Positions 6,428 to 51,167 of a DNA stretch of 64,000 bases are shown here, one piece after another. Source of the DNA: Promethearchaeota archaeon (GTDB lineage Archaea; Asgardarchaeota; Lokiarchaeia; Sigyniarchaeales; SOKP01); contig JAUVXW010000013.1 in assembly GCA_030603385.1 (NCBI GenBank), forward strand, positions 21,629-85,628. The letters run 5' to 3'. The position numbers and the translations under genes were made by a program. Numbering within the stretch: position 1 is the first letter of the stretch; every line of letters begins with the position of its first letter. Below the pieces are notes generated by a model. It ran no database searches, had not been told where the DNA came from, and saw nothing but the letters and a program-made list of their open reading frames with translations.

Positions 6428-7888
6428 ATGACTAACGAATTTAATGGAGAAGATAAGGAAAGTAAACCAGACAAGGAAAGCGAGAGGATAGATAAGGAAT
6501 TTTTAACTAAAGCAAAAAATTCCAGAGATATGATAGATAAAAAATTGAGAACTTTTGAGAATAGTATAGAAGATATCTCAGAAACAATTACTAACGGCGA
6601 AACAGAAGAAGAAAAAGAAAAAAGTAAAAAAGAAGTAGAAGAAATTAGTGAAGAGATAAAAGAAGCACAACTAAAACTTGATACGGTTTCAAAGAAAATT
6701 GATGATAAAGAAGAATATTTAACTGCTCTTGAAGAAACTATATCTGCTCTTGAAGAAAAGTATAATCGGAAAACAGAAGAAATGAAAAATCTGGAAGAAC
6801 GATTTGAAATTATAAAAGAGAGCAAAGATAATCTAGAAGATGATTATAAAGAACTCTTAAGAAATAACGAACAATTAGTAAAAACATATGAAAGTAGACA
6901 AGTTGATTTAATTGTTCTTACAGATTCTGTAAAAGAGAAAGTTTCATCTCAGGATGAACTGAGAAATCAAATCTCAAAATTAAATCAAGAAATATCAGAA
7001 AAGGAAGCAAAACTGGAGAAACAAAGGGAAGAATCAGAGGTTCTAGAGAAAAAAATAAAAAGCCAGAGTGCTGAAAACGAAACTTTAAGATTTTATCTTA
7101 ATAAAAATAAAGTTGAATTAGAGCATTCTAATTCTGAAATTGAAGCAAAAGAAGAGGAAAGAAAACTTTTAACAGAACAAATTGAAAAAAAAGAAATAAG
7201 AATAAAGGAAGTAGAACAAAAAATTGAAGAATATCATGATGGATTTCCTGAAATGGAAAAACAAAGAGAAACATATGAGGAACTTCTTGCTAAGTATAAA
7301 GTTCAACTAACTGATAAACAACAACAATTAATTGACATGGAATCTCGAATTCAAGAGCTCAAAGACGCAACTGAATCCTTAGATGAACAAACAAACGCCA
7401 AACAAAATTTAATTGATGCGAATGAAAAAAGGATTGAAGACTTAAAACAAGATATAGAAACGTCAAATACAGAATATCTTGAGAGAGAAGAACGGCTCGA
7501 CGCCATAACAGAGAAATTGACACGTATGGAATCAGATCATGAAAAATTAAAAAAAGCTAAAGAAGCAATTGAGGGTAGTACTAATGACTCTCGAATTATA
7601 CTTCAACAATTGAAAGAAGAATTAGAAAATCAAGAAAAGGAAATTAGAGATAAAGAGAGTCGGATCCACAGATTAGAAATATTATCCGCTATTTATAGAG
7701 CTTCGAAATTCTTCGGCGGAATTTTAATAGGTGCGGGAATATTTTTTATAATTTGGTCAATAGGAATATTTACTAATACAATAGATTTAGGGGATGTAAA
7801 TATAAATACATTTTTAATGGTTATATTCCTGTTAGTTGGAGCTATATTATCAATTATTTCTGGAATATTCCACCTTGAGAAATCATAA
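6428..7888 (+). CDS. Long coiled-coil protein with two C-terminal transmembrane helices
   Basis: ~420 aa of E/K-rich heptads followed by two hydrophobic segments. Confidence 0.75.
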   Translation: MTNEFNGEDKESKPDKESERIDKEFLTKAKNSRDMIDKKLRTFENSIEDISETITNGETEEEKEKSKKEVEEISEEIKEAQLKLDTVSKKIDDKEEYLTALEETISALEEKYNRKTEEMKNLEERFEIIKESKDNLEDDYKELLRNNEQLVKTYESRQVDLIVLTDSVKEKVSSQDELRNQISKLNQEISEKEAKLEKQREESEVLEKKIKSQSAENETLRFYLNKNKVELEHSNSEIEAKEEERKLLTEQIEKKEIRIKEVEQKIEEYHDGFPEMEKQRETYEELLAKYKVQLTDKQQQLIDMESRIQELKDATESLDEQTNAKQNLIDANEKRIEDLKQDIETSNTEYLEREERLDAITEKLTRMESDHEKLKKAKEAIEGSTNDSRIILQQLKEELENQEKEIRDKESRIHRLEILSAIYRASKFFGGILIGAGIFFIIWSIGIFTNTIDLGDVNINTFLMVIFLLVGAILSIISGIFHLEKS

Positions 7889-7957
7889 TTTACCCTTCTA
7901 TTAATTCACGAATATATTTGAAATTTAAATTAATAATACTATTTTAATGATTTAGGT

Positions 7958-9820
7958 TTGACTGAAAAAGAACAAGAAGCAGTTGTCCGTAAAAGAACGA
8001 TTAAGTTATCATCGGGAATCCTTTACGGAATTGGATGTGGAATTGGGGGTTCAGTTTTTATATTATTAGGCACAGCTATTGGACAAGCACAATCTGGTGT
8101 TTTTATTAGCTTAATCTTAGGTGGAATTTTAATTTTCATCACTGCTTTGAATTATAGTGAATTATCAACTAGTTTACCCGTTTCTGGAGGAGCTTATAAC
8201 TTTAGTAAGGAAGCATTGGGTGGATTTTTAGCATTTATAATAGGTTTCTTCTTATGGATTGCTAGCATTGCTACATTCTCTTTTTCTGCTCAAGCTTTTG
8301 TTGTTGTTATTGAAGCCTTTTTTCCATTACCTATAATGAAAAATTTATTCATTCTTATTGCATTATTATCAATATTATTTACTACTATAGTTGTTTTTAG
8401 AACTCAGATATTAGCACTAAGGACTATAATTTCTTTAACAATTATATTATTAATTATATTTGGTATCTTTATCATAACGGGGTTCCTAATTTCTCCAATT
8501 ACTAATACTTCAAATTTTAATACAGATTTTCTAACCTCGGATACGAATTTTCTTAGTGTAATCCTTATGTTTTCATTCTTGTTTATTTTTTTTACTAGTA
8601 TCACTTCAAATTTAGCTTATCTAAATGCTGATCTAAAAAATCCTTCTAAGAATATCCCTAAAGCAAATATTTTTGCGATACTAATTACACTTCTTATCTA
8701 TTTATTAATAACAACTGTATCTATGATTAATATTGGTAATAATCCAAATGAATCTCCAATTTTATTAGCTTTAATCCTAAATGATGTATTAGGATTTTCA
8801 GGGTATTTGTTAATGGGTATAGCAGCCACAATCTCGACCTTTATTGCAATGAATGCGGCTTTGGGATCAGCAGTCGCCGTAATGCATGCATTGGCAAGAG
8901 ATCACTATGTTTCACAGAAGCTCTTGAAAGTAAATAAAAAAACAAATGCACCTACTTTCATATTAATAATTACAACTGGAATTGCCATATTATTTACAAT
9001 TTTGGCAATACTATTCGCTGATATAGGTTTCACAGCGAATATAACAACTTTTATTTATTTTGTTGGATTAGCTTTCGTTAATTTTGCTGCTGTTAATCTT
9101 AGATACAAGAGAAAAGAATTAGATCGCCCATTTAAAGCTCCATTTTTTCCTTACTTACCATTAATTGTTGGTTCCAGTTGCCTAGTTTTTGCTTTTGCTT
9201 TAAATATTAATGCTATTCTTTTAGGTCTAATTATTTTTATTATTGGGGTTACCTATTATTTATTGACGATTACAGATCGACATTCAATAGTCTTTACGTT
9301 AGCAGGCTTGAAATTTTTTGCGCTTGTTCTTGTCGGTATTTTTATTTGGATCATAAATAATTTAGGTACAATATATTCTCCCATTTTTTCTTTTATACTG
9401 CTCCGTATCTTAATATTTATTTGCATTTTTTCAATTGGTACGATTTTCTTTGATATATTTCCACTCAAAGAATTAGTTTATTATTTTATAAAAAAAGTAA
9501 ACAAAAAGGAAGTAGCAATTGATATTGGAATTGGTACTATAATAGAGTTGAAAAAAGCTAAGGCGAAAAGCATCTATTATATTAATATAATGATTAGTAT
9601 TATTCAAATAGCATCTTCATTTTTTATTTTTTCTTTAATCACATTATTTACTTCAGACATTATTTCAATAGAAAATATCATCATTGGCAGTACCCTAATT
9701 TCACAAAAAACAGCCGAATTTCTTTTCATTTCATTTTTATTGTTTTTTGGGACAACATTATTGTTTGGGGGTACAATTAGTTTGTATGTAAATCGAGAAA
9801 CAAAAACCCTTGGAATTTAA
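7958..9820 (+). CDS. APC-family amino acid permease with extra C-terminal TM helices
   Basis: GCGIGGSVF, YSELSTSLPVSGGAY, RPFKAPFFP. Confidence 0.9.
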   Translation: MTEKEQEAVVRKRTIKLSSGILYGIGCGIGGSVFILLGTAIGQAQSGVFISLILGGILIFITALNYSELSTSLPVSGGAYNFSKEALGGFLAFIIGFFLWIASIATFSFSAQAFVVVIEAFFPLPIMKNLFILIALLSILFTTIVVFRTQILALRTIISLTIILLIIFGIFIITGFLISPITNTSNFNTDFLTSDTNFLSVILMFSFLFIFFTSITSNLAYLNADLKNPSKNIPKANIFAILITLLIYLLITTVSMINIGNNPNESPILLALILNDVLGFSGYLLMGIAATISTFIAMNAALGSAVAVMHALARDHYVSQKLLKVNKKTNAPTFILIITTGIAILFTILAILFADIGFTANITTFIYFVGLAFVNFAAVNLRYKRKELDRPFKAPFFPYLPLIVGSSCLVFAFALNINAILLGLIIFIIGVTYYLLTITDRHSIVFTLAGLKFFALVLVGIFIWIINNLGTIYSPIFSFILLRILIFICIFSIGTIFFDIFPLKELVYYFIKKVNKKEVAIDIGIGTIIELKKAKAKSIYYINIMISIIQIASSFFIFSLITLFTSDIISIENIIIGSTLISQKTAEFLFISFLLFFGTTLLFGGTISLYVNRETKTLGI

Positions 9821-40765: not shown

Positions 40766-42025
40766 TTATTCAATTTCAATGTTATATTTCTTGAAAATTT
40801 TTTCGAGCTCATCGCTAGCTAGATGCTTTAAAATATCTACTAATGGGGCTAAAACTTCCTCTTGCTTTGCCTTTCTATTTTGGCTAATTCTTCCTTCTTT
40901 TACTTGAAAACTCGATTGTGCCCAACTATATTCATCATTAAATGTGAACCAGATTTCTTTATAAGCGCCTTCTTGTCCTCCATTTCCAGCTAATGGCTTC
41001 TTATCGACAGGTACTTCAGGATCTTGTAGATAACACCAATCTAATATTACCCATTCGAGTTTCCTTGAAGATTCAGGTCTATCTGCTAAATAGATACAAT
41101 ACGCGTGGCCTCCTTCCTCAGATGAGGGGAATAATGGATTTGTCATTACCTGAGCTGCAGCTACTTTTACTCTCCATGAAGGAATTCCCGCATTTATCAA
41201 TAGACCTGCTATTAAAATGGCACCATCTTCACAGTCACCAATTTCCGATTGAATAGATTCAAAAGGGAATTGCCAAAACTCAGGACATTCGACAGATTCA
41301 TCATCTCCGATATATTTAAGAAAATCACACACGAACTTCTGAATTACCCTTGCAGTTTCGTTTGCAGTTTCTCGTCTTAATCCCGCTTGACTTATGACAT
41401 GCCAAAGAATTGCATCATTATCTTTTATAAAGGTTTTTACATCAGCATCAATTTGTTTTTTATATGATTCACCTCTCAATGCCCTAGCTGTGTAAATGAT
41501 TGGAGCTTTTTCCCATTTATCATTCCAGTATTTAAGACCATATTTGCCATAATCACCTTCAAATGGTGAAATTTCAATTAATTCTGGAGGTGTAATAATT
41601 TCTTCGTCTTTCTTCCCTTTCTTCTCTTTCTTTTCTGGTTCTCCTGAAAGAGATTTAGCATTTATAATCCATTTTTTTACTTCACTCTCTGTTGGAACCT
41701 TTGTAAGAACTTTTGGTTTTTCTTTTTTCAAATCCTTCAGTTTAGTTATAATACTTTTTGGATTTCTACGTGCGAATTCTTTTACAGAATCAATTCCAAT
41801 TAGGTTTAGAGCATTTGCGATTTTTGGATTGACTCCATCAATCCTCATTAAATCTGCATGCTCTTGCCAGCTATCAAGAAGTTCAGCGGATACTCCAATC
41901 TTTTTCGCCAGTTTTTTGATTTGACTTGTTGTTAGAGGTAATAGGTCTTCAACGTTCCCAAATCCTTGTTTTTCCAAAAGACTAGCATGTACCTTATCAA
42001 TTCCTACAATTTCTATAATTTTCAT
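40766..42025 (-). CDS. DUF4332/HhH-like domain fused to a transglutaminase-like domain
   Basis: ADLMRIDGV...GIDSVKE; GDCEDGAIL, GHAY, ILDW (Cys-His-Asp). Confidence 0.8.
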   Translation of the reverse strand: MKIIEIVGIDKVHASLLEKQGFGNVEDLLPLTTSQIKKLAKKIGVSAELLDSWQEHADLMRIDGVNPKIANALNLIGIDSVKEFARRNPKSIITKLKDLKKEKPKVLTKVPTESEVKKWIINAKSLSGEPEKKEKKGKKDEEIITPPELIEISPFEGDYGKYGLKYWNDKWEKAPIIYTARALRGESYKKQIDADVKTFIKDNDAILWHVISQAGLRRETANETARVIQKFVCDFLKYIGDDESVECPEFWQFPFESIQSEIGDCEDGAILIAGLLINAGIPSWRVKVAAAQVMTNPLFPSSEEGGHAYCIYLADRPESSRKLEWVILDWCYLQDPEVPVDKKPLAGNGGQEGAYKEIWFTFNDEYSWAQSSFQVKEGRISQNRKAKQEEVLAPLVDILKHLASDELEKIFKKYNIEIE

Positions 42026-42112
42026 GTTTAACGCTCTAAAATTTTATTCTAATGCAAATAAATCAGTATAACTATAAAAAGAAGATATTAAAATTCTATA
42101 AAAAAATTTAGA

Positions 42113-42808
42113 CTAAAAATGAATAACAAATTTCTTTTTTCGTTGTTCTAACGAAACAGCTAAAAACGCCTTATTTTGTACTAAATTAAAAATCAACTCA
42201 GCAATTTCTTCATTATTCAGCTTAAGCGAACCACTGATTTCATAAAATAATTTTTCTAGCAAAAATCCGCCTTTAGTTTTATGAGCAAGGACTTTAGCGA
42301 ATTGAAAAACTTTTTTAGATTTTGGAGATAATTTTTTTCCCTTCGTTGAGCCTAATTTATACGGTAAGGTTAAATATAGATGGAAAACATCTTCAATGAT
42401 ATCTTCTATACTCTGTTTTGATTTAGATTGCTTCCGAAAAATTGAAATGTCTCCTTGAAATTGGGTATATAATCCTAAAATTTCTCTTTTGTATTGACCC
42501 TCAAATAATTCACAAAAAAATTTTAAAACCTCCCTTGTGAATAGAGTGGGTAAATTATTGAGAATTAAACTAATCCAGATCATTTTACCTGCCCGAGTAA
42601 TTAGATATTTTCCCTCTAGAGTTGCTTGTTCAATTTCCCCTGGTTCTAATGGTAAATCTAAAATTTCATATTGAATTGAACTCCGAAATGTATCAAGAAA
42701 ATCAAGATCAAAACTACCCGCAGTTTTATAGTAAATGATCTCTCGAGATTCTCTATGAGTTATAATAACGTATTCAATTGATAATGCTAAAGATAAATAT
42801 TCTGAAAT
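42113..42808 (-). CDS. Hypothetical longin-like plus helical-domain protein; start apparently ATT at 42808
   Basis: The frame is open 75 codons upstream of the ATG at 42583 (ISEYLSLALSIEYVIITHRESREIIYYK...), preceded by GGAAGGT and a BRE/TATA-like GCAAAATTATAAATAA. The fold assignment is inference. Confidence 0.6.
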   Translation of the reverse strand: MSEYLSLALSIEYVIITHRESREIIYYKTAGSFDLDFLDTFRSSIQYEILDLPLEPGEIEQATLEGKYLITRAGKMIWISLILNNLPTLFTREVLKFFCELFEGQYKREILGLYTQFQGDISIFRKQSKSKQSIEDIIEDVFHLYLTLPYKLGSTKGKKLSPKSKKVFQFAKVLAHKTKGGFLLEKLFYEISGSLKLNNEEIAELIFNLVQNKAFLAVSLEQRKKKFVIHF

Positions 42809-42876
42809 AAGAATTCTTACCTTCCACTGTGATTTCTATGTATATTGAATAGTGTCTTTTTTATTTATAATTTTGC
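42684..42876 (-). repeat. Direct repeat copy 1 (promoter and 5' end of the intact gene)
   Basis: About 90% identical to 47417-47610 by hand count. Confidence 0.95.
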
Positions 42877-43038
42877 GTGTTATTTCTTAAAATGTATCGT
42901 TAAATTCAGAATTTAAAAAAGCTATTGTTTTATGAGTTATGAGATAAAATTGTTCAAATTCCTTTGAGTACACAAAAGTATTAAATACTATATTATAAAC
43001 AATTTATTTAACAAACTTTAAAAAAATGGCGAAATATT

Positions 43039-45480
43039 ATGAAAAAGACAATAAAAAGAGTATTGGTTATACTATTAGGAAGTATTCTATGGTTATCAAT
43101 TTTTATAAGTAATGAATTTTTCAATGAAACTAACTTATATTCAAATATAAATAATCCTGTCCAATTCGCTAATGGCCCAATCCCACCATCAATGGGCCAA
43201 TCACTTGTCTTTGGAACAATAGCGGGCCCTATAGATTTGGATCCGCACTTATGCTACGATTCATCTAGTCAAGCCGTAATTTCCCAAATTTGTGAGGGTC
43301 TCTATAAATTCAATACCACAGATCCTACATATCCAATAGTTCCGGTACTTGCAACAGCACTACCGACAATCTCACCAGATGGTTTAAATATAACCATTCC
43401 TCTTAGAACAGGTGTCACATTTACAGATGGAACGCCGTTTAATGCAACCGCTGTAAAATGGAATTTTGACAGATTAAACTATTTCTTAAATTATTCAGGG
43501 AACCAGTTTTTACCTGCTCCGTTTAATATACCACTTCCTTCAGATGGTTCTATCCAAAAAACTACAGCAGAAATGCTATTTACATTAAACAGCGTTCCCA
43601 TTATTAATAGAACAGAAGTTATCGGCCCATATACCATAAAAATTGTGATGAATGTACCAAAAGCATCCTTTATTAATCTGTTAACTTATCATTCCACCTT
43701 TTTCCACTCACCTACATCTGCACAAGCCCAAGGGAAAGAACTTGACTATCTCACGTATGCCGATGCCGATACTTTAATTGGGACGGGTCCTTTTATCTTC
43801 CAATATTATGCCACCAATATTGAAGTAAATTTTATTGGGAACCCGAATTATTGGCAGGGTGCTCCATTATTAACAGAGCTAATATTTTCAATTATTCAAG
43901 ATACTAATGCTTTGAATTTAGCGGTACTTGCAGGTGATATTGACTTATGTGATGCCCCAGCGTCAAGTTTCTTTGATACATTCAGAGCTGATCCAGACAT
44001 AACCCTCCTGGAAGCCGGACCTACTGTATTAACTAGTTATATGGGATTTAATGGATATATGGTGAATACGACATTTCGGAAAGCAATCTCATATGCGATT
44101 AATTATTCATATCTAATCGATGTAGTTTTGTCAGGTGAAGCATATAGATTGAAATCTCCAATCCCCGAAGGCATACCAATGTCGAACTATTCTTTCAATT
44201 ATCCCGTATTTGACCGTGCATATGCACAATCAATCATGCAATCTATGGGATATGGAACAACCTTTACGACAGATGCTGATTGGACTACTCATGCGGATGG
44301 AGGAGGATGGGGGTTTGGATGGAATATTACAGCCCAAACTGAAGGAGTAACCCGAAGAGACTTCGCTATACTTATTTCGGACAGTCTAAGATATCTCGGG
44401 ATTAATGCTCCCGTAGTACAGATCCCTTTTGGGGATTTACTCACATGCATACAAAATGATGTTGGGTTCTTAAGACGAGACAGAATCCCAATGTACATGC
44501 TTGGATGGGGTCCTGATTATATAGATCCTGAGAATTACATTTCACCTTTATACAGTAATAGATCATCAATTTGGGTCAATACCTATGATTATGAATTAGA
44601 GCAATTAATGCTCGCGGGAGAAACAACAGTCGATATTCTTGCTAGACTAGCAATTTATAATGAAATTCAACGGAAATTGGTTGAAGAACTCTACTTTTTT
44701 GCTTGGATCGCGACAGGCAAGAATTATGATGTTTATCAAAATTACGTTAAAGGATGGGTTCCTAATGCTATTAATGTAATCGATTTCTATCCTGTATATC
44801 TCGATATACCAGATTTGATAGCACCAACGATCATTATATTTTTTCCAATTCTTAATCAAATATATAGTTATAATTCTCCCGACTTTGCTATTACTGTCAG
44901 TGATGTTTCTCCAATAAATTCTACATGGTATACTATAGATGGAGGATTAACAAATTACACCTTTTCCGGACTAGCAGGAACTATAAATCAAACAGCATGG
45001 GATAATGAAAATAGTGGTCTGATTACTTTAAGATTCTACGCAAATGATTCGGCAGGAAATGTAGGTTTTACAGATAGAATTGTCATAAAAGATGTGTTAA
45101 CACCAGAAATTACAATTAATTCCCCAATTGCAGGTGAGGAGTTCACGGAACCCCCTGATTTTACTATTTCTATTATTGAAGGGAATTTAGACTCCACTTG
45201 GTATACGGTAGAAGGAAGCCTGACCCAATATCCATTCATAGGATTAACTGGAACAATCCATCAAAATGCATGGGATGACGCACCAGAAGGAGATGTTACT
45301 ATAGCTTTTTATGCTGAAGATAGAGCAGGAAATATGGGATCTAAAAGTGTAGTAGTTAAGAAAAGAATCCCATCAAAAGGACCAGAAATTCCAGGATATA
45401 ATGTATTGATAATAACTGGTATTTCATTCATTGCTCTTTTCATTATAACGCAGAAGAGAAGAATAAATATAAAAAAATAA
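43039..45480 (+). CDS. Orphan ABC peptide/nickel substrate-binding protein (family 5) with two Ig-like repeats and C-terminal sorting signal
   Basis: LDP, LRTGVTFTDGTPFNA, IGTGPF, NPNYW; two STWYT...NAWD...FYA.D.AGN repeats; IPGYN-TM-KRR. Confidence 0.9.
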   Translation: MKKTIKRVLVILLGSILWLSIFISNEFFNETNLYSNINNPVQFANGPIPPSMGQSLVFGTIAGPIDLDPHLCYDSSSQAVISQICEGLYKFNTTDPTYPIVPVLATALPTISPDGLNITIPLRTGVTFTDGTPFNATAVKWNFDRLNYFLNYSGNQFLPAPFNIPLPSDGSIQKTTAEMLFTLNSVPIINRTEVIGPYTIKIVMNVPKASFINLLTYHSTFFHSPTSAQAQGKELDYLTYADADTLIGTGPFIFQYYATNIEVNFIGNPNYWQGAPLLTELIFSIIQDTNALNLAVLAGDIDLCDAPASSFFDTFRADPDITLLEAGPTVLTSYMGFNGYMVNTTFRKAISYAINYSYLIDVVLSGEAYRLKSPIPEGIPMSNYSFNYPVFDRAYAQSIMQSMGYGTTFTTDADWTTHADGGGWGFGWNITAQTEGVTRRDFAILISDSLRYLGINAPVVQIPFGDLLTCIQNDVGFLRRDRIPMYMLGWGPDYIDPENYISPLYSNRSSIWVNTYDYELEQLMLAGETTVDILARLAIYNEIQRKLVEELYFFAWIATGKNYDVYQNYVKGWVPNAINVIDFYPVYLDIPDLIAPTIIIFFPILNQIYSYNSPDFAITVSDVSPINSTWYTIDGGLTNYTFSGLAGTINQTAWDNENSGLITLRFYANDSAGNVGFTDRIVIKDVLTPEITINSPIAGEEFTEPPDFTISIIEGNLDSTWYTVEGSLTQYPFIGLTGTIHQNAWDDAPEGDVTIAFYAEDRAGNMGSKSVVVKKRIPSKGPEIPGYNVLIITGISFIALFIITQKRRINIKK

Positions 45481-45657
45481 TTTTAATTAATTTTTTTTTA
45501 AAACCTAATCTTTGAACCTTACAGTGTCAGTTATTACTAAATATATAAGAAGAATTAATGAATAATACAGTATAGGTGAAAATCTATACATATACAAATC
45601 TAAAATTAATAAAATTTGAATGGAAAAAAAAAATCTTTTCTTATCATATTAGGAATT

Positions 45658-45836
45658 AAATCAGAATCAAAATCATTAGCAGTTTTATAGTAAATGATCC
45701 CTCTAGATTCTCTATGTGTTATAGTAATATACTCAATTGATATTGCTAAAGATAAATATTCTGAAATAGGAATTCCTACCTTCCACTGTGATTTCTTATG
45801 TATATTGAATAGTGCTCTATTTATTTATAATTTTGC
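45658..45836 (-). repeat. Direct repeat copy 2 (promoter and truncated 5' gene fragment)
   Basis: gcagttttatagtaaat...taccttccactgtgatttc...ttatttataattttgc; encodes ISEYLSLAISIEYITITHRESRGIIYYKTA, then diverges. Confidence 0.95.
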
Positions 45837-45986
45837 TTGGCGTATTAATGATAAAATCAATTGATATTAAAAACAATTTAATTGTAATAATTGTAAATTT
45901 TAACAACGGGATATCCTAAAACAATGGATGACCAATTAATTGATATGAAAACCTAAAATAGAAGAAAAAAAAAAAGCAAAGTAATC

Positions 45987-47348
45987 TTATTGGTTTTTTA
46001 AATGATATTTTTTAATCATTATTAGAACTGCGCAACTAAGTATTCCTATTATAATCCATAAATTGAACCCTGGAATTGTGCCACCGGTACCACCATTACC
46101 CTCTTTACTTGGTATTAATAATTCCAAATTTTTGATTATAAAAGCATCCAAACCAGCAATTCCGGGTGTCCTTCCGACCATGTATACATTCCCAGATGTA
46201 TCTACTTCGACATTATGTCCTATATTCCTACCTGCTGTAGTATTGCCTTTCCATGACCCTACTCGGAGTAAAGTACCATTTGAAGCAAATTTCATTAATA
46301 AAGCTGAACTCTCATAGTTGGCCATCTCAGTAGCACCTGTAATGAAAATGTTAGAATTATCATCTAATGTAATACCATAAGCCCATGAAGTGATATCTTG
46401 GTATGTGCTCTCCCAGAGTAACTCTCTTGATGGATTATATTTTCTTAAAAATAACGCCCCATTGGAATCCGTTCCATAAAATCCTGTAACATAGAAATTT
46501 CCCGAAGAATCTACTATAACATCCATAACTCGTCCGCTATAATATGCTGGCTCATCCCAAGTTATATTCCAGAATTGATAACCAGTAGTAGCATTAAAAC
46601 AAGCAATCAGAGGGATATCCTTACTTAGAGTATAGTTACGCTCTTGACCAACAACATAGATTAAATCGTTAAAAGTTGCAATTCCGTGAATGCTTTTCCT
46701 AGAATCATCTTTTATACCAAAAGTTACGTTCCAAACTTCAGTTCCACCGGAATCGAGTTTTAGAATGAAATATTGATATGTATACGAAGGATGAGAACCA
46801 TATGGCATCTCTCCAATAAAATAAATGTCACCTGTTTGACTTAACGTCATATCTGAAGTATAACACCCGGTCGCTCCCGATTTAACCCATGTTCTATTCC
46901 ATAGGTAATTTCCTAAACCGTCATACTTTCCTAGAAAACATTCATATCTTGAGGTACTTTGATTAAGGTAATTACTTCCTACATAAATTTCTGTTCCACT
47001 AACTGCAAGTGCTCTAAACTTATCTTGACTGCCACCGTCCCTGGTATCATTCCAAAGCTGTGTTCCTGTTTCGTCAAATTTAGCGACAAATTGATCTATA
47101 GTTGTATTATACGTTTGCCCTCCAATAATTATATCATCGTTACTGTCAATGGCAACATCAAAAGCCATATCATCATTATCATCAAATCTACTCCATAATG
47201 AAATCCAATCATAAGGTGCTGATAAGTTAACAGATGTAGTCTCTGGAACATGAGTTCTTTGGTTTACCGTTAAATTTATTGGTTCAGTTATAAATAGAAC
47301 AAGGCTGATAAATAATACTGTTTTAATTAATATTCGATTTATTTTCAT
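45987..47348 (-). CDS. Secreted beta-propeller (SBBP-like) surface protein with C-terminal sorting signal
   Basis: Signal peptide from MKINRILIK; repeated D..GN.YV.G...K.D..G...W units; IPGFN-TM-KK. Confidence 0.85.
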   Translation of the reverse strand: MKINRILIKTVLFISLVLFITEPINLTVNQRTHVPETTSVNLSAPYDWISLWSRFDDNDDMAFDVAIDSNDDIIIGGQTYNTTIDQFVAKFDETGTQLWNDTRDGGSQDKFRALAVSGTEIYVGSNYLNQSTSRYECFLGKYDGLGNYLWNRTWVKSGATGCYTSDMTLSQTGDIYFIGEMPYGSHPSYTYQYFILKLDSGGTEVWNVTFGIKDDSRKSIHGIATFNDLIYVVGQERNYTLSKDIPLIACFNATTGYQFWNITWDEPAYYSGRVMDVIVDSSGNFYVTGFYGTDSNGALFLRKYNPSRELLWESTYQDITSWAYGITLDDNSNIFITGATEMANYESSALLMKFASNGTLLRVGSWKGNTTAGRNIGHNVEVDTSGNVYMVGRTPGIAGLDAFIIKNLELLIPSKEGNGGTGGTIPGFNLWIIIGILSCAVLIMIKKYHLKNQ

Positions 47349-47416
47349 AATACAATATATATCGTAGGAAGTATAAAAAGAATTAATGTGCTTTACACAA
47401 AAATGTAAAAAATATA

Positions 47417-47610
47417 CGAGATGAATCAAGAAAGTCAGGATCAAAATTACCCGCAGTTTTATAGTAAATTATCTCTCGAGATTCTCTATGTGTTATAATA
47501 ATATATTCAATTGATATTGCTAAAGATAAATATTCTGAAATAGGAATTCCTACCTTCCACTGTGATTTCTTATGTATATTGAATAGTACTCTATTTATTT
47601 ATAATTTTGC
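47417..47610 (-). repeat. Direct repeat copy 3 (promoter and truncated 5' gene fragment)
   Basis: Encodes ISEYLSLAISIEYIIITHRESREIIYYKTAGNFDPDFLD, then diverges and stops. Confidence 0.95.
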
Positions 47611-47831
47611 CTAATATCAGTTAAAGAATTAATAACTTAATCTTGGGAATCATTATCATCAATATTGAGAATAAAAGTGCAGATGGCGCACTCAAAGGCA
47701 CAAAGGAGTATATACTATTTACAAAAAAGTAAAAATATAAATAGCTACTTATTAATTTATATTTTACACCGAAATCTAATCTAAAAAAAAAAAAACTATA
47801 AAAAGAAATTATATAGAGGTGGTAATAAAAA

Positions 47832-48146
47832 ATGTTATTTATTTCATATTGGGAGTTAAACCCAGATTTTGATCCCTCAGAATTAGCTGAAATTACACAA
47901 ATGCTCATGAGTAAAAAACTCTACCCCGCTGAAGGAGTTAATGACATCGCTTTTCATGTAAGTACATCGGACTATTGGGGAATTAGTATAAGTGAATCCG
48001 ACAGTGAAGAGGCAATGGCTAGAAGTACTAATATGTGGAGAATTGCCAAACCTGGCTACATAAAGCTTGTTAAAACCACACCTGCAATGGAAGTAGCTAA
48101 AGCACTACCAGTAATAATGAAACTAAAAAAAGATATAAAAGGTTAA
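47832..48146 (+). CDS. Small hypothetical protein (DUF3303-like)
   Basis: MLFISYWE start, WGISISE, KTTPAM; family assignment tentative. Confidence 0.55.
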   Translation: MLFISYWELNPDFDPSELAEITQMLMSKKLYPAEGVNDIAFHVSTSDYWGISISESDSEEAMARSTNMWRIAKPGYIKLVKTTPAMEVAKALPVIMKLKKDIKG

Positions 48147-48253
48147 TATTAAACTGACTTCCATTCTTTCTTCATCAAGGATCAAGAGTAAAATTATTTA
48201 TCAAAATCTTAATTTTCTTTTTTTTTTGATTAGAACTGTTAATATAATTTTAA

Positions 48254-49216
48254 TTATCTATTTTGAGAATTTTTAGCAGCAAATTCATCGATTTCTTTCT
48301 GATCTTTACTATTATCATCATTTTTCTTGTTTTCTAAATATTCATAAATTTTATTCCCTGAAGCAAGTGGGAAAATATTTTTATCTTCTTTAAAAGTTTT
48401 AAGTGATTTCATGCGTTTTTTAGACCAATACCCCCGGGGAGGTGTAGAAATTCCCCATTTCTTACACCATTTCTTAACTGTTTTATCTGATACTCCATAA
48501 TTTTTGCCAATTTTAGTTAACGGTAATTGCCATACAAGTTCTTCCAGTTTTTTCTTTGTAATTTTGAATTTTTTTTTATTAGAACGCCAAGCATTAGCTT
48601 TAATTTTAGCTATTCTACTTTCCTCAGTCTCAAAATTATGTCTTTTACTCTGTAAGCTATTATGATAATTTGCTAGCATTTCATTGTATAATTCGATACC
48701 TAGACTCATAGAATATCCATGACCCTTAATTAATCTAGTTCCTATAAAACTCCGACTTCTTTTTTCATAGATTTTAAAAGGTAAATTAAAATGGCTCTTA
48801 ATTTGTTCTAAAAATATTTTACTCCCAGTAATGATTCGAGTAGTACCAGTTTTCCCATCTCCATCATAGAATCCAAGAAGAAAAGCTAAATATAATTTAC
48901 GGTTACTTAGATTTGGTAATTCTATAATTTTTGATTTTCTAGGTACAACTCCCCATCTAACTAAATCTTTTACAATTTTTTTATTAACAAATTTAACTAC
49001 CACAGTATGATCTCTTTCTCTGTAATGCTTACGATTTGGATCAATATCTAGTGTTATAATAAACCGATCTATAAGTATCTCATCATCTTTACCAATTTCG
49101 ATCCCCAATCTATAAGCCTTCTGATTTCTAGTTTCTATATAACCCTCAGCATAAAGAAATCCTAACCAATAAGATTTTTCTTTTATATCAATATCATCAA
49201 AATAATTTTCCTTCAA
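48254..49216 (-). CDS. Free-standing double-motif LAGLIDADG endonuclease with C-terminal HTH
   Basis: YWLGFLYAEG and FLLGFYDGDG; LTKIGKNYGVSDKTVKKWC HTH; no intein or host gene around it. Confidence 0.88.
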   Translation of the reverse strand: MKENYFDDIDIKEKSYWLGFLYAEGYIETRNQKAYRLGIEIGKDDEILIDRFIITLDIDPNRKHYRERDHTVVVKFVNKKIVKDLVRWGVVPRKSKIIELPNLSNRKLYLAFLLGFYDGDGKTGTTRIITGSKIFLEQIKSHFNLPFKIYEKRSRSFIGTRLIKGHGYSMSLGIELYNEMLANYHNSLQSKRHNFETEESRIAKIKANAWRSNKKKFKITKKKLEELVWQLPLTKIGKNYGVSDKTVKKWCKKWGISTPPRGYWSKKRMKSLKTFKEDKNIFPLASGNKIYEYLENKKNDDNSKDQKEIDEFAAKNSQNR

Positions 49217-49723: not shown

Positions 49724-50101
49724 ATGCCTGTAGGTATTCTTGTAATTCGTTGGGATAACGAAATTGGCCCAATAAATGAAGGTTTTTATCCGGAGACTTT
49801 AAAGATCACTAACAATCTACTCACGCAAGTTTATTCGAGTCACAGATACCAGAGTCTCAAACCCGGCTTCGCGAGCATCGCGCTCAAGAATAATAAAGTA
49901 GTATCATTTTTCTCAGGAGTAGGACAAGATTTTATTTCAGTTGAGAATTATGTTGTGGCTCTTATACTTCGAAGAGATGAAAAACCTGGAAAATATCGAG
50001 AGGTATTAAAGACAATTGCGGCTGAAATTCTTGAAAAAATCCCAGATGACTCATTTCGGGAGGTTTTACCTGGGCTTTATTACCAATTAGCCAAGGTATA
50101 A
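49724..50101 (+). CDS. Longin/uDENN-like small protein
   Basis: ILVIRWDNEIGPINEGFYPE resembles the uDENN/NPR2 N-terminal hairpin motif. Confidence 0.55.
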   Translation: MPVGILVIRWDNEIGPINEGFYPETLKITNNLLTQVYSSHRYQSLKPGFASIALKNNKVVSFFSGVGQDFISVENYVVALILRRDEKPGKYREVLKTIAAEILEKIPDDSFREVLPGLYYQLAKV

Positions 50102-50159
50102 GGATCTTTTATTATTATCCTTTTTTTAAATTGCTTAAAATGAATTAAGATAAGTTAAA

Positions 50160-51167
50160 CTAACTATCTTCAATTTTTTGTTTAACAACGATTTTACCTT
50201 GTTCATTAGTTTCAAGAATGCCTGCATTTTCTAAATCTTGAACATTTCTTTTGACTATAACTATAGGAGAACCAAGAGCGGCTCGGAGATCTTCTAAACT
50301 TATTGCTCCTACCTCTTCAACTATAAGAAAAGTTTTGAAAAGTACTTCTTTTTCCATTAACGGTTTTAGTTTATCAAAATATTGGATCTTTTCGATGTTG
50401 TCTTTATGGAAATCTTGGATTTCCTTAATCTTTTTGTTTAAACGCTCTAGTTCTGCATTAGCTTCTCTATTTTTATCACTTAGTTCTCCAACTTTATTAA
50501 TTAATTCTTCATGTTTATTTCTCATTTGTTGAAATCTAGAAACAGCATCTTTCGCTTCAGAGTCTTTTTCTGTAGAAACTAATTTACTATCCAATAATAT
50601 TTGATCAAGTTGATTAAGTTTAGATTTTAATTCTTGTGTTTCTTTTATGTATTTTTCTTCCATTTGCGATATTATTTTAACTTGTTCTTCTTTAAACTTA
50701 TCAGTAAATGCTTCTAATTCTTGTATTTTGTTTTCCAAAGATTTCTTTGATTCCTTTTGCAGAATAAATTCCGAACTTTTTTCAGCCATTTCTGCTCTTA
50801 AATTTCCCATAGTCTCATAAGATTCCTCTAACTTCTTTTGTGTAGGAATAATTTGTTTTTTCATTAATTCAAGTTCCTTTTGTGATTGAGCGATCTCTCC
50901 CTTAGCATATTCTAACTCAAGCTCTTTCTCATTAAGTTGTTGTCTTTGCGCGCCAATTAATTCTTTTAATTCAAGAATATCTTCTGGAATATCGCTCATT
51001 TTAGAGATCTTGGTTTTTTGGTCATCTATTATAGCCTCTTGTTCACTAACTACTCTTTTTTGACGTTCTACTAGTGCTGTTAACTTATCTACTTTTGATT
51101 GCAAAATAGCAGTTTTCTTTTCACTAGATTCAATGCCATCTAATACATCTCTTAAATCTTTTGACAC
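50160..51167 (-). CDS. Coiled-coil protein with C-terminal winged helix
   Basis: ~270 aa of heptads, then ISLEDLRAALG...VQDLENAGILE. Confidence 0.75.
   Translation of the reverse strand: MSKDLRDVLDGIESSEKKTAILQSKVDKLTALVERQKRVVSEQEAIIDDQKTKISKMSDIPEDILELKELIGAQRQQLNEKELELEYAKGEIAQSQKELELMKKQIIPTQKKLEESYETMGNLRAEMAEKSSEFILQKESKKSLENKIQELEAFTDKFKEEQVKIISQMEEKYIKETQELKSKLNQLDQILLDSKLVSTEKDSEAKDAVSRFQQMRNKHEELINKVGELSDKNREANAELERLNKKIKEIQDFHKDNIEKIQYFDKLKPLMEKEVLFKTFLIVEEVGAISLEDLRAALGSPIVIVKRNVQDLENAGILETNEQGKIVVKQKIEDS

Follow-up and report, generated by a model that had tools for sequence, protein, structure and literature searches.

How do single, unrelated genes come to be stacked between copies of the promoter and first codons of a chromosomal gene when no recombinase is encoded nearby? 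The question is raised by a locus in a 64,000-nt stretch of DNA (the window) from a Promethearchaeota archaeon of the Lokiarchaeia (assembly GCA_030603385.1, contig JAUVXW010000013.1, positions 21,629 to 85,628). Here a gene for a 231-aa longin-domain protein (42113..42808, minus strand; the host gene), recognised by its predicted structure and its orthologues, is the proximal anchor of an island of variable gene content. An initial annotation had proposed that circles made up of a cargo gene plus a promoter/5′ fragment integrate serially at the host gene, restoring it each time, and so provide an exchangeable locus for varying the cell surface. Our comparisons support the insertions and point to ordinary recombination, not a dedicated cassette enzyme, as their most likely source.

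A repeat search of the window returned three direct repeats at 42699–42877, 45658–45836 and 47432–47610, and gapped alignment set their limits at 42684–42876 (copy 1), 45658–45836 (copy 2) and 47417–47610 (copy 3), all on the minus strand. Identities obtained with BLAST were 93% between copies 2 and 3, 91% between copies 1 and 3 and 87% between copies 1 and 2 (E-values 1e-58 to 1e-72), and the three copies were the only matches in the whole 3.89-Mb genome. The repeat is thus neither a chance similarity nor a dispersed miniature inverted-repeat transposable element (MITE), which would have copies at unrelated loci. Read in the sense of the gene, each copy begins at its outer end with GCAAAATTATAAATAA, plausibly a TFB recognition element and TATA box (BRE/TATA), followed by a Shine-Dalgarno (SD)-like GGAAGGT and then by coding sequence. 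Similarity of all three copies was lost at one base, just outside GCAAAATTATAAATAA, and the in-gene ends differed, as the initial annotation had described. Its further statement that only copy 1 continues into a full gene was also borne out: behind copy 1, which holds the working promoter, the gene is open and conserved, and copies 2 and 3, with ~36 and ~42 codons respectively, run into stops soon after. Copy 2 additionally carries several amino-acid changes and is visibly decaying. With these stops and changes, copies 2 and 3 are dead stubs.

The interval between copies 1 and 2 contains cargo 1 (43039..45480, plus strand), encoding an 813-aa solute-binding-type surface protein (Pfam SBP_bac_5, E-value 4e-63) with two stalk repeats and a PGY-type membrane anchor at its C-terminus. 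The gene is preceded by its upstream region x (42877..43038, plus strand), homologous to a stretch adjoining a truncated promoter copy in a related genome, G053. Between copies 2 and 3 lies the cargo 2 module (45956..47416, minus strand), made up of a beta-propeller surface protein gene (Pfam PQQ_2 and SBBP) and ~70 nt of its own upstream region. This gene runs from an ATG at 47348 to a stop at 45987 and encodes 453 aa with a PGF-CTERM-like tail; the module ends were set by flank homology to its orthologue in G058, and orthologues occur at two other loci, in G058 and G015. Judging from an N-terminal signal or membrane segment and a PGF/PGY-type C-terminal anchor in each, both cargo genes look like genes for surface proteins. 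The claim of exactly one unrelated gene per interval holds for these two, on opposite strands, but overlooks a piece of dead DNA in the first interval: a DUF3303 promoter with ~12 codons and its ATG changed to ATC (D′; 45535..45667, plus strand), butted against copy 2 at the far end of the imported block. On the other side of copy 3 come the ancestral intergenic region and the intact DUF3303 gene (47611..48146, plus strand; gene at 47832–48146), which is divergent from the host gene in most species.

The comparison took in 54 genomes from the genus together with 24 metagenome contigs; the source genome is denoted G000. Orthologues of the host gene were present in 36 of the 54 genomes, and its downstream neighbours were fixed (DUF4332, PadR, 2TM and PAP2). 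Upstream, the stretch reaching to a conserved distal flank, which consists of a 125-aa open reading frame (ORF; plus strand) and a 335-aa ORF (minus strand) at 49724..51167 and marks the far side in nearly all relatives, is a hypervariable island. In its commonest state the island contained DUF3303 alone, ~160 bp from a full host gene (G001, G006, G009, G015, G020, G011, G045 and others). Other genomes had nothing, a LAGLIDADG-type gene with DUF3303, a binding-protein gene with DUF3303 (G053), a gene for a 648-aa protein (G003), or a GNAT gene, either alone (G004, G022) or with a GT2 gene (G019); one metagenome contig held leucine-rich repeat (LRR), CBM96, kinase and nitroreductase genes. The flanks of G019 are ~96% identical to those of the window, yet what they enclose is GT2, GNAT and an ORF of 162 aa, along with two stubs (56 and 153 nt). 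Cargo thus differs among relatives, even between the window and G019. Variation of the cell surface suits the two cargo genes of the window but not the whole locus, as the cargo range among relatives also includes kinase, nitroreductase, enoyl-CoA hydratase, LRR protein, GNAT and GT2 genes.

Copy 3 adjoins DUF3303 in the ancestral position, the place held by the whole gene start in the DUF3303 species, and both cargo genes of the window are on that basis insertions. Extra copies of the gene start were present at 3 of ~31 genus loci and on four of the 24 metagenome contigs (L101, L119, L122 and L123). Just past the intact DUF3303 gene of G042 we also observed a partial second copy of the 3′ end of DUF3303, along with 23 nt matching the host TATA region (L060:2839–2919 and 2926–2948), which may be another scar of stacking.

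Each repeat copy retains its own upstream neighbour, and the resulting orders recur in relatives. The window order of copy 1, x, binding protein, segment y and D′ is collinear with G053, where a gene-start copy is followed by x, binding protein, y and DUF3303, at 74–80% identity (80% for window 42817–42986 against L056:3544–3713). The nearest homologue of cargo 1 (73%) adjoins the host gene orthologue in G053, and D′ is of the G053/G015 sequence type, quite unlike the upstream region of the resident DUF3303 gene. Likewise, the GNAT gene and stub of G019 are collinear with the GNAT gene and host gene of G004 (86% over 923 nt), and on contig L119 the propeller gene lies directly upstream of a longer host gene copy, which is open as far as the contig reaches, to residue 91 at least. 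On the strength of these neighbours and collinearities, the blocks are pieces of alternative versions of the same island. What remains of the proposed serial integration is that genes were inserted with the host gene left intact each time; the integrated units were not self-contained cassettes.

Copy 1 is itself composite. Its first ~48 nt (AAAAAAGA, with a 1-nt deletion) are of the G053/L119 type and came with the binding-protein block, and the remainder is of the G019 type, a mosaic that marks a crossover inside the repeat. The in-gene ends of the stubs, of which at least eight were counted over G000, G019, G053, L101, L119, L122 and a variant from record X1, lie 48, 56, 66, 110, 127–129, 153–169, 179 and 193 nt from the common outer end, the first 48 nt, where a fixed crossover core could lie, being shared by all copies. 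The joint between D′ and copy 2, alone among the joints in being resolved at base level, has an imperfect microhomology of 5–10 nt (..TTCTGATTT..), both partners matching the 11-nt GATTCTGATTT with one or two mismatches each. Varied in-gene ends together with short, imperfect microhomology argue for homologous plus illegitimate recombination rather than for a site-specific enzyme.

A common outer end might be taken for the boundary of an element, but the conservation profile of the host gene suggests otherwise. Mean pairwise DNA identity among 14 species was 0.75–0.82 from −68 to +240 relative to the start codon, compared with 0.3–0.4 further upstream and 0.57–0.70 in the rest of the gene. Identity climbs from ~0.3–0.4 beyond −90 to 0.7–0.8 by −60, and the shared outer end, at −68, falls on this climb. 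Homology between any two versions of the island would thus stop just outside the promoter, and the common end would be simply where promoter conservation between species stops. The segment from the promoter to about codon 80 is the best-conserved DNA of the neighbourhood, which means that it can pair with the DNA of diverged relatives and is a natural anchor for doing so.

Logan contigs of four studies were placed on 42000–48300 of the window. In record X2, contigs with an even depth of ~16x span copy 1, x and the binding-protein gene, the joint between D′ and copy 2, and the stretch from copy 2 through segment z into the propeller gene. A 3.5-kb contig from the same record joins 47394 straight to 47721 with TCTC between them and represents a strain without copy 3; this joint was also found in X6, with similar joints in X1. 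X1 and X4 also include an ‘empty’ arrangement: beyond the promoter, a short spacer leads to the DUF3303 upstream region. The joint between copy 3 and the propeller module is covered by a Joint Genome Institute (JGI) contig at 94% identity. From the contigs of these records, the array is genuine and natural populations are polymorphic for it. The three grounds on which the initial annotation would have been refuted thus did not materialise, since cargo varies among relatives, contigs of independent origin uphold the joints and the repeat is confined to one locus. The X2 form (copy 1, binding protein, D′ joined to copy 2, propeller, DUF3303) is what a single illegitimate exchange between a binding-protein haplotype and a propeller haplotype would be expected to produce.

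We favour as the probable origin of the array an additive integration involving one homologous crossover in the conserved gene start and one microhomology joint. DNA carrying another version of the island would recombine with the resident chromosome through a crossover within the conserved gene start, and its other end would be joined illegitimately, guided by microhomology, inside the resident gene start. Owing to the position of this second joint, the resident promoter and 5′ end would be left behind as a dead stub, the incoming block bringing or keeping an intact gene start. Two such events, one for the propeller block and one for the binding-protein block, would give three repeats. We infer the order of events, the form of the incoming DNA, for which a fragment acquired by uptake, a circularised piece and a second copy of the chromosome are candidates, and the enzymes, which would be those of host RadA-type recombination and end joining. 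Campbell-type insertion of a circle, entry of a linear fragment with one-sided homology and unequal chromosome exchange lead to the same product and are indistinguishable; circles are possible intermediates. The features expected of homology-anchored integration were all encountered: an anchor duplicated around the insert, a mosaic repeat, a varying second joint, and the donor-type order elsewhere as plain chromosome, namely in G053 for the binding-protein block, in G004 for the GNAT block of G019 and in L119 for a propeller gene adjoining the host gene.

Several observations weigh against additive integration. Neither a circular nor a linear intermediate was seen, and no donor of the propeller block was found. 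Although the gene is 700 nt long, all nine joints fall within its first 193 nt, which random breakage would not predict; such clustering needs an added assumption, either selection against longer stubs or faster loss of longer repeats. The upstream boundary of the propeller module is the same in G000 and L119 despite their different stub lengths, and could therefore be a defined cassette end. One X1 contig, with 34 letters on its short side, joins 47632, 22 nt upstream of a promoter copy, to 42749, 127 nt inside the repeat; this backward joint is out of register for simple excision by recombination between repeats, and could reflect a strain in which 149 nt of the promoter region are duplicated in tandem. 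Lastly, G015 has the propeller orthologue at a different locus, flanked on both sides by the same contiguous 200-nt target, an arrangement that looks like a true target duplication and is unexplained by one-sided homology.

The G015 arrangement bears directly on an alternative that we consider unlikely, in which gene-sized DNA is inserted generally and without a recombinase, leaving a long (100–200 nt) target duplication, and the host gene start is one target among many. A candidate route would be template switching at a stalled fork, of the fork stalling and template switching/microhomology-mediated break-induced replication (FoSTeS/MMBIR) type, with foreign DNA being copied and replication resuming about one Okazaki-fragment length behind. 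The G015 propeller orthologue (54% identity) is bracketed by L081:5555–5757 and 7839–8036 (G015:C44), ~200 nt each, and the repeated unit consists of the 3′ ends of two convergent genes with their spacer, in one contiguous piece. The matching site of G000 is occupied by three different genes and shows no duplication. The propeller module lies between two gene-start copies both in the window and in L119, with the boundary noted above, and the possible promoter duplication in X1 would fit the same pattern. In G000, moreover, ~15 further repeat pairs (100–385 nt) surround one to three non-mobile genes. These repeats are 83–100% identical and 0.7–5 kb apart, and the bracketed genes include hydrolases, PLD, CN hydrolase, a HepT/MNT pair and another SBBP propeller; the places are on C3, C8, C12, C13, C15, C19, C20, C25, C26, C35, C36 (two), C38, C43 and C54, with three copies in a row on C43.

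Against this, the binding-protein block has no need of such a process, its proximal end being an old junction common to G053 and copy 1 showing a crossover. The genome contains no second cargo copy that could have been a template: a source of cargo within the genome was rejected, since neither block, nor any of eight other repeat-bracketed inserts, occurs there twice, and only paralogues at ≤74% were found. Nor was a simple empty site present at C12, where G019 has the cargo without one of the repeats, or at C19, where the order in G018 is L-T-R-cargo; at the two C36 loci, the contigs of relatives break at the variable region. For these reasons a genome-wide mechanism is not claimed from the loci followed. 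The G015 duplication, the fixed propeller boundary and the ~15 bracketed places nevertheless keep general insertion with long target duplication in play. Extended to the Promethearchaeia as a whole, it would be an integrase-free mode of single-gene gain leaving target duplications of 100–200 nt, approximately the length of an archaeal Okazaki fragment, with a LAGLIDADG endonuclease perhaps supplying the breaks at the present locus. We hold that extension to be doubtful; if it were true, one process would have produced the longin-gene array, the duplication of 200 nt in G015 and at least a dozen repeat-bracketed genes in G000.

Tandem duplication of the whole gene with its island, by unequal crossover between haplotypes and with later deletions leaving stubs, is in our estimation quite unlikely. 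It would account for the X2 form, which is exactly what one unequal crossover of two haplotypes would yield, and for the visible decay of copy 2. No second long copy of the host gene was, however, found at any of the ~55 loci examined, and every stub retains the promoter end and is shorter than 200 nt.

A site-specific cassette system, in which a recombinase encoded elsewhere would cut within the first ~48 nt and circles of cargo plus gene start would integrate and excise, appears to us very unlikely. All truncated copies, even the shortest (48–66 nt), do contain the same promoter-proximal segment, each event leaves the gene restored, copy 3 is present in some coexisting strains and absent from others, and five tyrosine recombinase genes are encoded elsewhere in the genome. 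The blocks, however, include pieces of neighbouring chromosomal genes, the binding-protein block ending in the DUF3303 fragment D′, and match plain chromosomal orders in other species; the binding-protein gene of G053 has the repeat on one side only; the loss of copy 3 in X2 runs from 47394 to 47721 and not from repeat to repeat; and extra copies are confined to the few loci enumerated above. The absence of a nearby recombinase, already remarked upon in the initial annotation, was upheld by searches: there was no tyrosine recombinase (PF00589) on the window contig (C9), no recombinase family among the ORFs scanned against Pfam over ~32.9–56.3 kb, and no integrase or recombinase in the ORFs scanned from the island versions of G000, G019, G004, G053, L100, L101 and L123. 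The repeat search of the window detected no inverted repeat of weight within the copies and no terminal inverted repeats around the cargo modules. A transposon with target-site duplication was accordingly rejected, the cargo genes having no match to a transposase family in Pfam and the modules no terminal inverted repeats. An integron or a cluster of attC sites lacking an integron integrase (CALIN) was likewise rejected, given the lack of PF00589 on C9, the lack of weighty inverted repeats in the copies and copy lengths of 48 to 193 nt.

An assembly artefact, that is, a chimera of coexisting strains threaded through the shared repeat, is extremely improbable even though the source is a metagenome-assembled genome (MAG) with 7% contamination and the source-like sample X1 is polymorphic at the locus, since strain switching at a shared repeat cannot yield truncated copies joined to non-homologous DNA, the joints recur on the contigs of other studies and of JGI described above, and comparable structures exist independently in G019, G053, L101, L119 and L122.

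The host gene has features of its own. Its reading frame, open from 42835, has an ATT at 42808 as the start codon and contains no ATG, GTG or TTG before 42583; the SD-like GGAAGGT lies ~10 nt upstream of this ATT (42806–42808, minus strand). The ATT is kept in all orthologues read from the genus except that of G003, which has ATG; ATG is found at the same codon also on contig L119 and in two of the three nearest orthologues read from other genera. Conservation of a non-canonical start may indicate translational control. The product had no Pfam family match, but an AlphaFold model built from 14 orthologues (predicted local distance difference test score, pLDDT, of 88) was matched by Foldseek to AP sigma, zeta-COP and NPRL2/3-type longin proteins, and from these fold matches the protein is classed as a longin-type ‘eukaryotic signature’ protein.

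Approximately 650 nt beyond copy 3, free-standing within the variable island, is a LAGLIDADG-type ORF (48254..49216, minus strand; Pfam LAGLIDADG_3, 23.9 bits, with weak I-CreI matches). It has two intact-looking motifs (YWLGFLYAEGY and LAFLLGFYDGDG) and a C-terminal helix-turn-helix. G047 and L123 have a 71–82% identical copy at the corresponding position, and G054, G022 and G062 have fragments. The ORF is a possible source of double-strand breaks at the locus; no association with arrays was evident among the relatives, G047 having the ORF without extra gene-start copies and G053 extra copies without the ORF.

Three smaller observations concern the array and its surroundings. The C-terminal module of the binding protein (residues ~590–810, 44800–45480; two ~100-aa repeats and the PGY anchor) is common to many otherwise unrelated large proteins of the genus, such as the 648-aa island protein of G003 and G000:C20:18484–19134. 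Immediately 3′ of the binding-protein gene, at 45487–45507, records X1, X2 and X6 have 20 extra letters, aligning to 45507 and resuming at 45487, which is a small insertion or duplication polymorphism. A 95-aa ORF at 47621–47908 (minus strand) overlaps the DUF3303 start and upstream region on the opposite strand; because its tblastn matches in relatives are limited to that stretch, covering the first ~25–40 residues and, in close relatives, residues 41–88 as well, it is probably not a gene.

Among known processes, the nearest analogues are homology-facilitated illegitimate recombination and Campbell-type insertion-duplication, both reportedly described in naturally transformable bacteria. There too, one homology anchors foreign DNA, a microhomology joint closes the other end and the anchor is duplicated without a dedicated recombinase or att site. 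Those, however, are bacterial laboratory events, whereas the present locus is a natural multi-step array in an uncultured Asgard archaeon, with donor DNA from another allele of the same island and with recurrence of the process, at one gene start, in several lineages. In the orphan toxin/immunity arrays found behind rhs and cdiA genes, gene ends are displaced by recombination in a conserved core: as here, a conserved part of a gene is the landing site, and newcomers displace the old variable part, left with a conserved fragment, into a row of stubs and cargo. In those arrays it is the 3′ end of the gene that is swapped and the cargo is functionally tied to the gene, whereas here the gene product is unchanged, promoter and 5′ end make up the stub, and cargo and gene are unrelated.

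Elements that restore the 5′ end of their target include dusA-specific islands and SXT in prfC, and tandem accretion of integrase-less units is known from cis-mobilizable elements (CIMEs) and from tycheposon arrays at tRNA genes. They resemble the present locus in serial insertion at one gene end, a replacement gene start with each insertion, partial target copies in between and some units without an integrase. They differ in their reliance on a fixed crossover core and a site-specific integrase; searches of the present locus revealed no integrase, its joints are variable and its units carry fragments of neighbouring chromosomal genes. Integrons and CALIN likewise present rows of single genes between repeats with content exchangeable between strains, but the locus has no IntI, no attI and no folded attC-like sites, its repeats are a host promoter with first codons, and its cargo genes bring their own upstream regions. 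The architecture was not described in the literature searched on Asgard mobile elements and repeat-bearing genomic islands.

Asgard genomes are large and gene-rich, and the manner in which they take up genes is poorly known. The locus is a readable record of that process, showing successive single-gene gains, donor orders in relatives, a crossover in the gene start, a microhomology joint and strains one step apart. As a natural example from an Asgard archaeon it is clear and documented unusually well, and there is a modest chance that it points to something more general. Should such arrays recur elsewhere, they may be common but overlooked, as stubs are dropped by annotation. Judged by this record, host recombination acting between diverged relatives can assemble flexible islands in these archaea, the versions examined having neither an integrase nor a transposase, and a short conserved gene start beside variable DNA can act as a landing pad.

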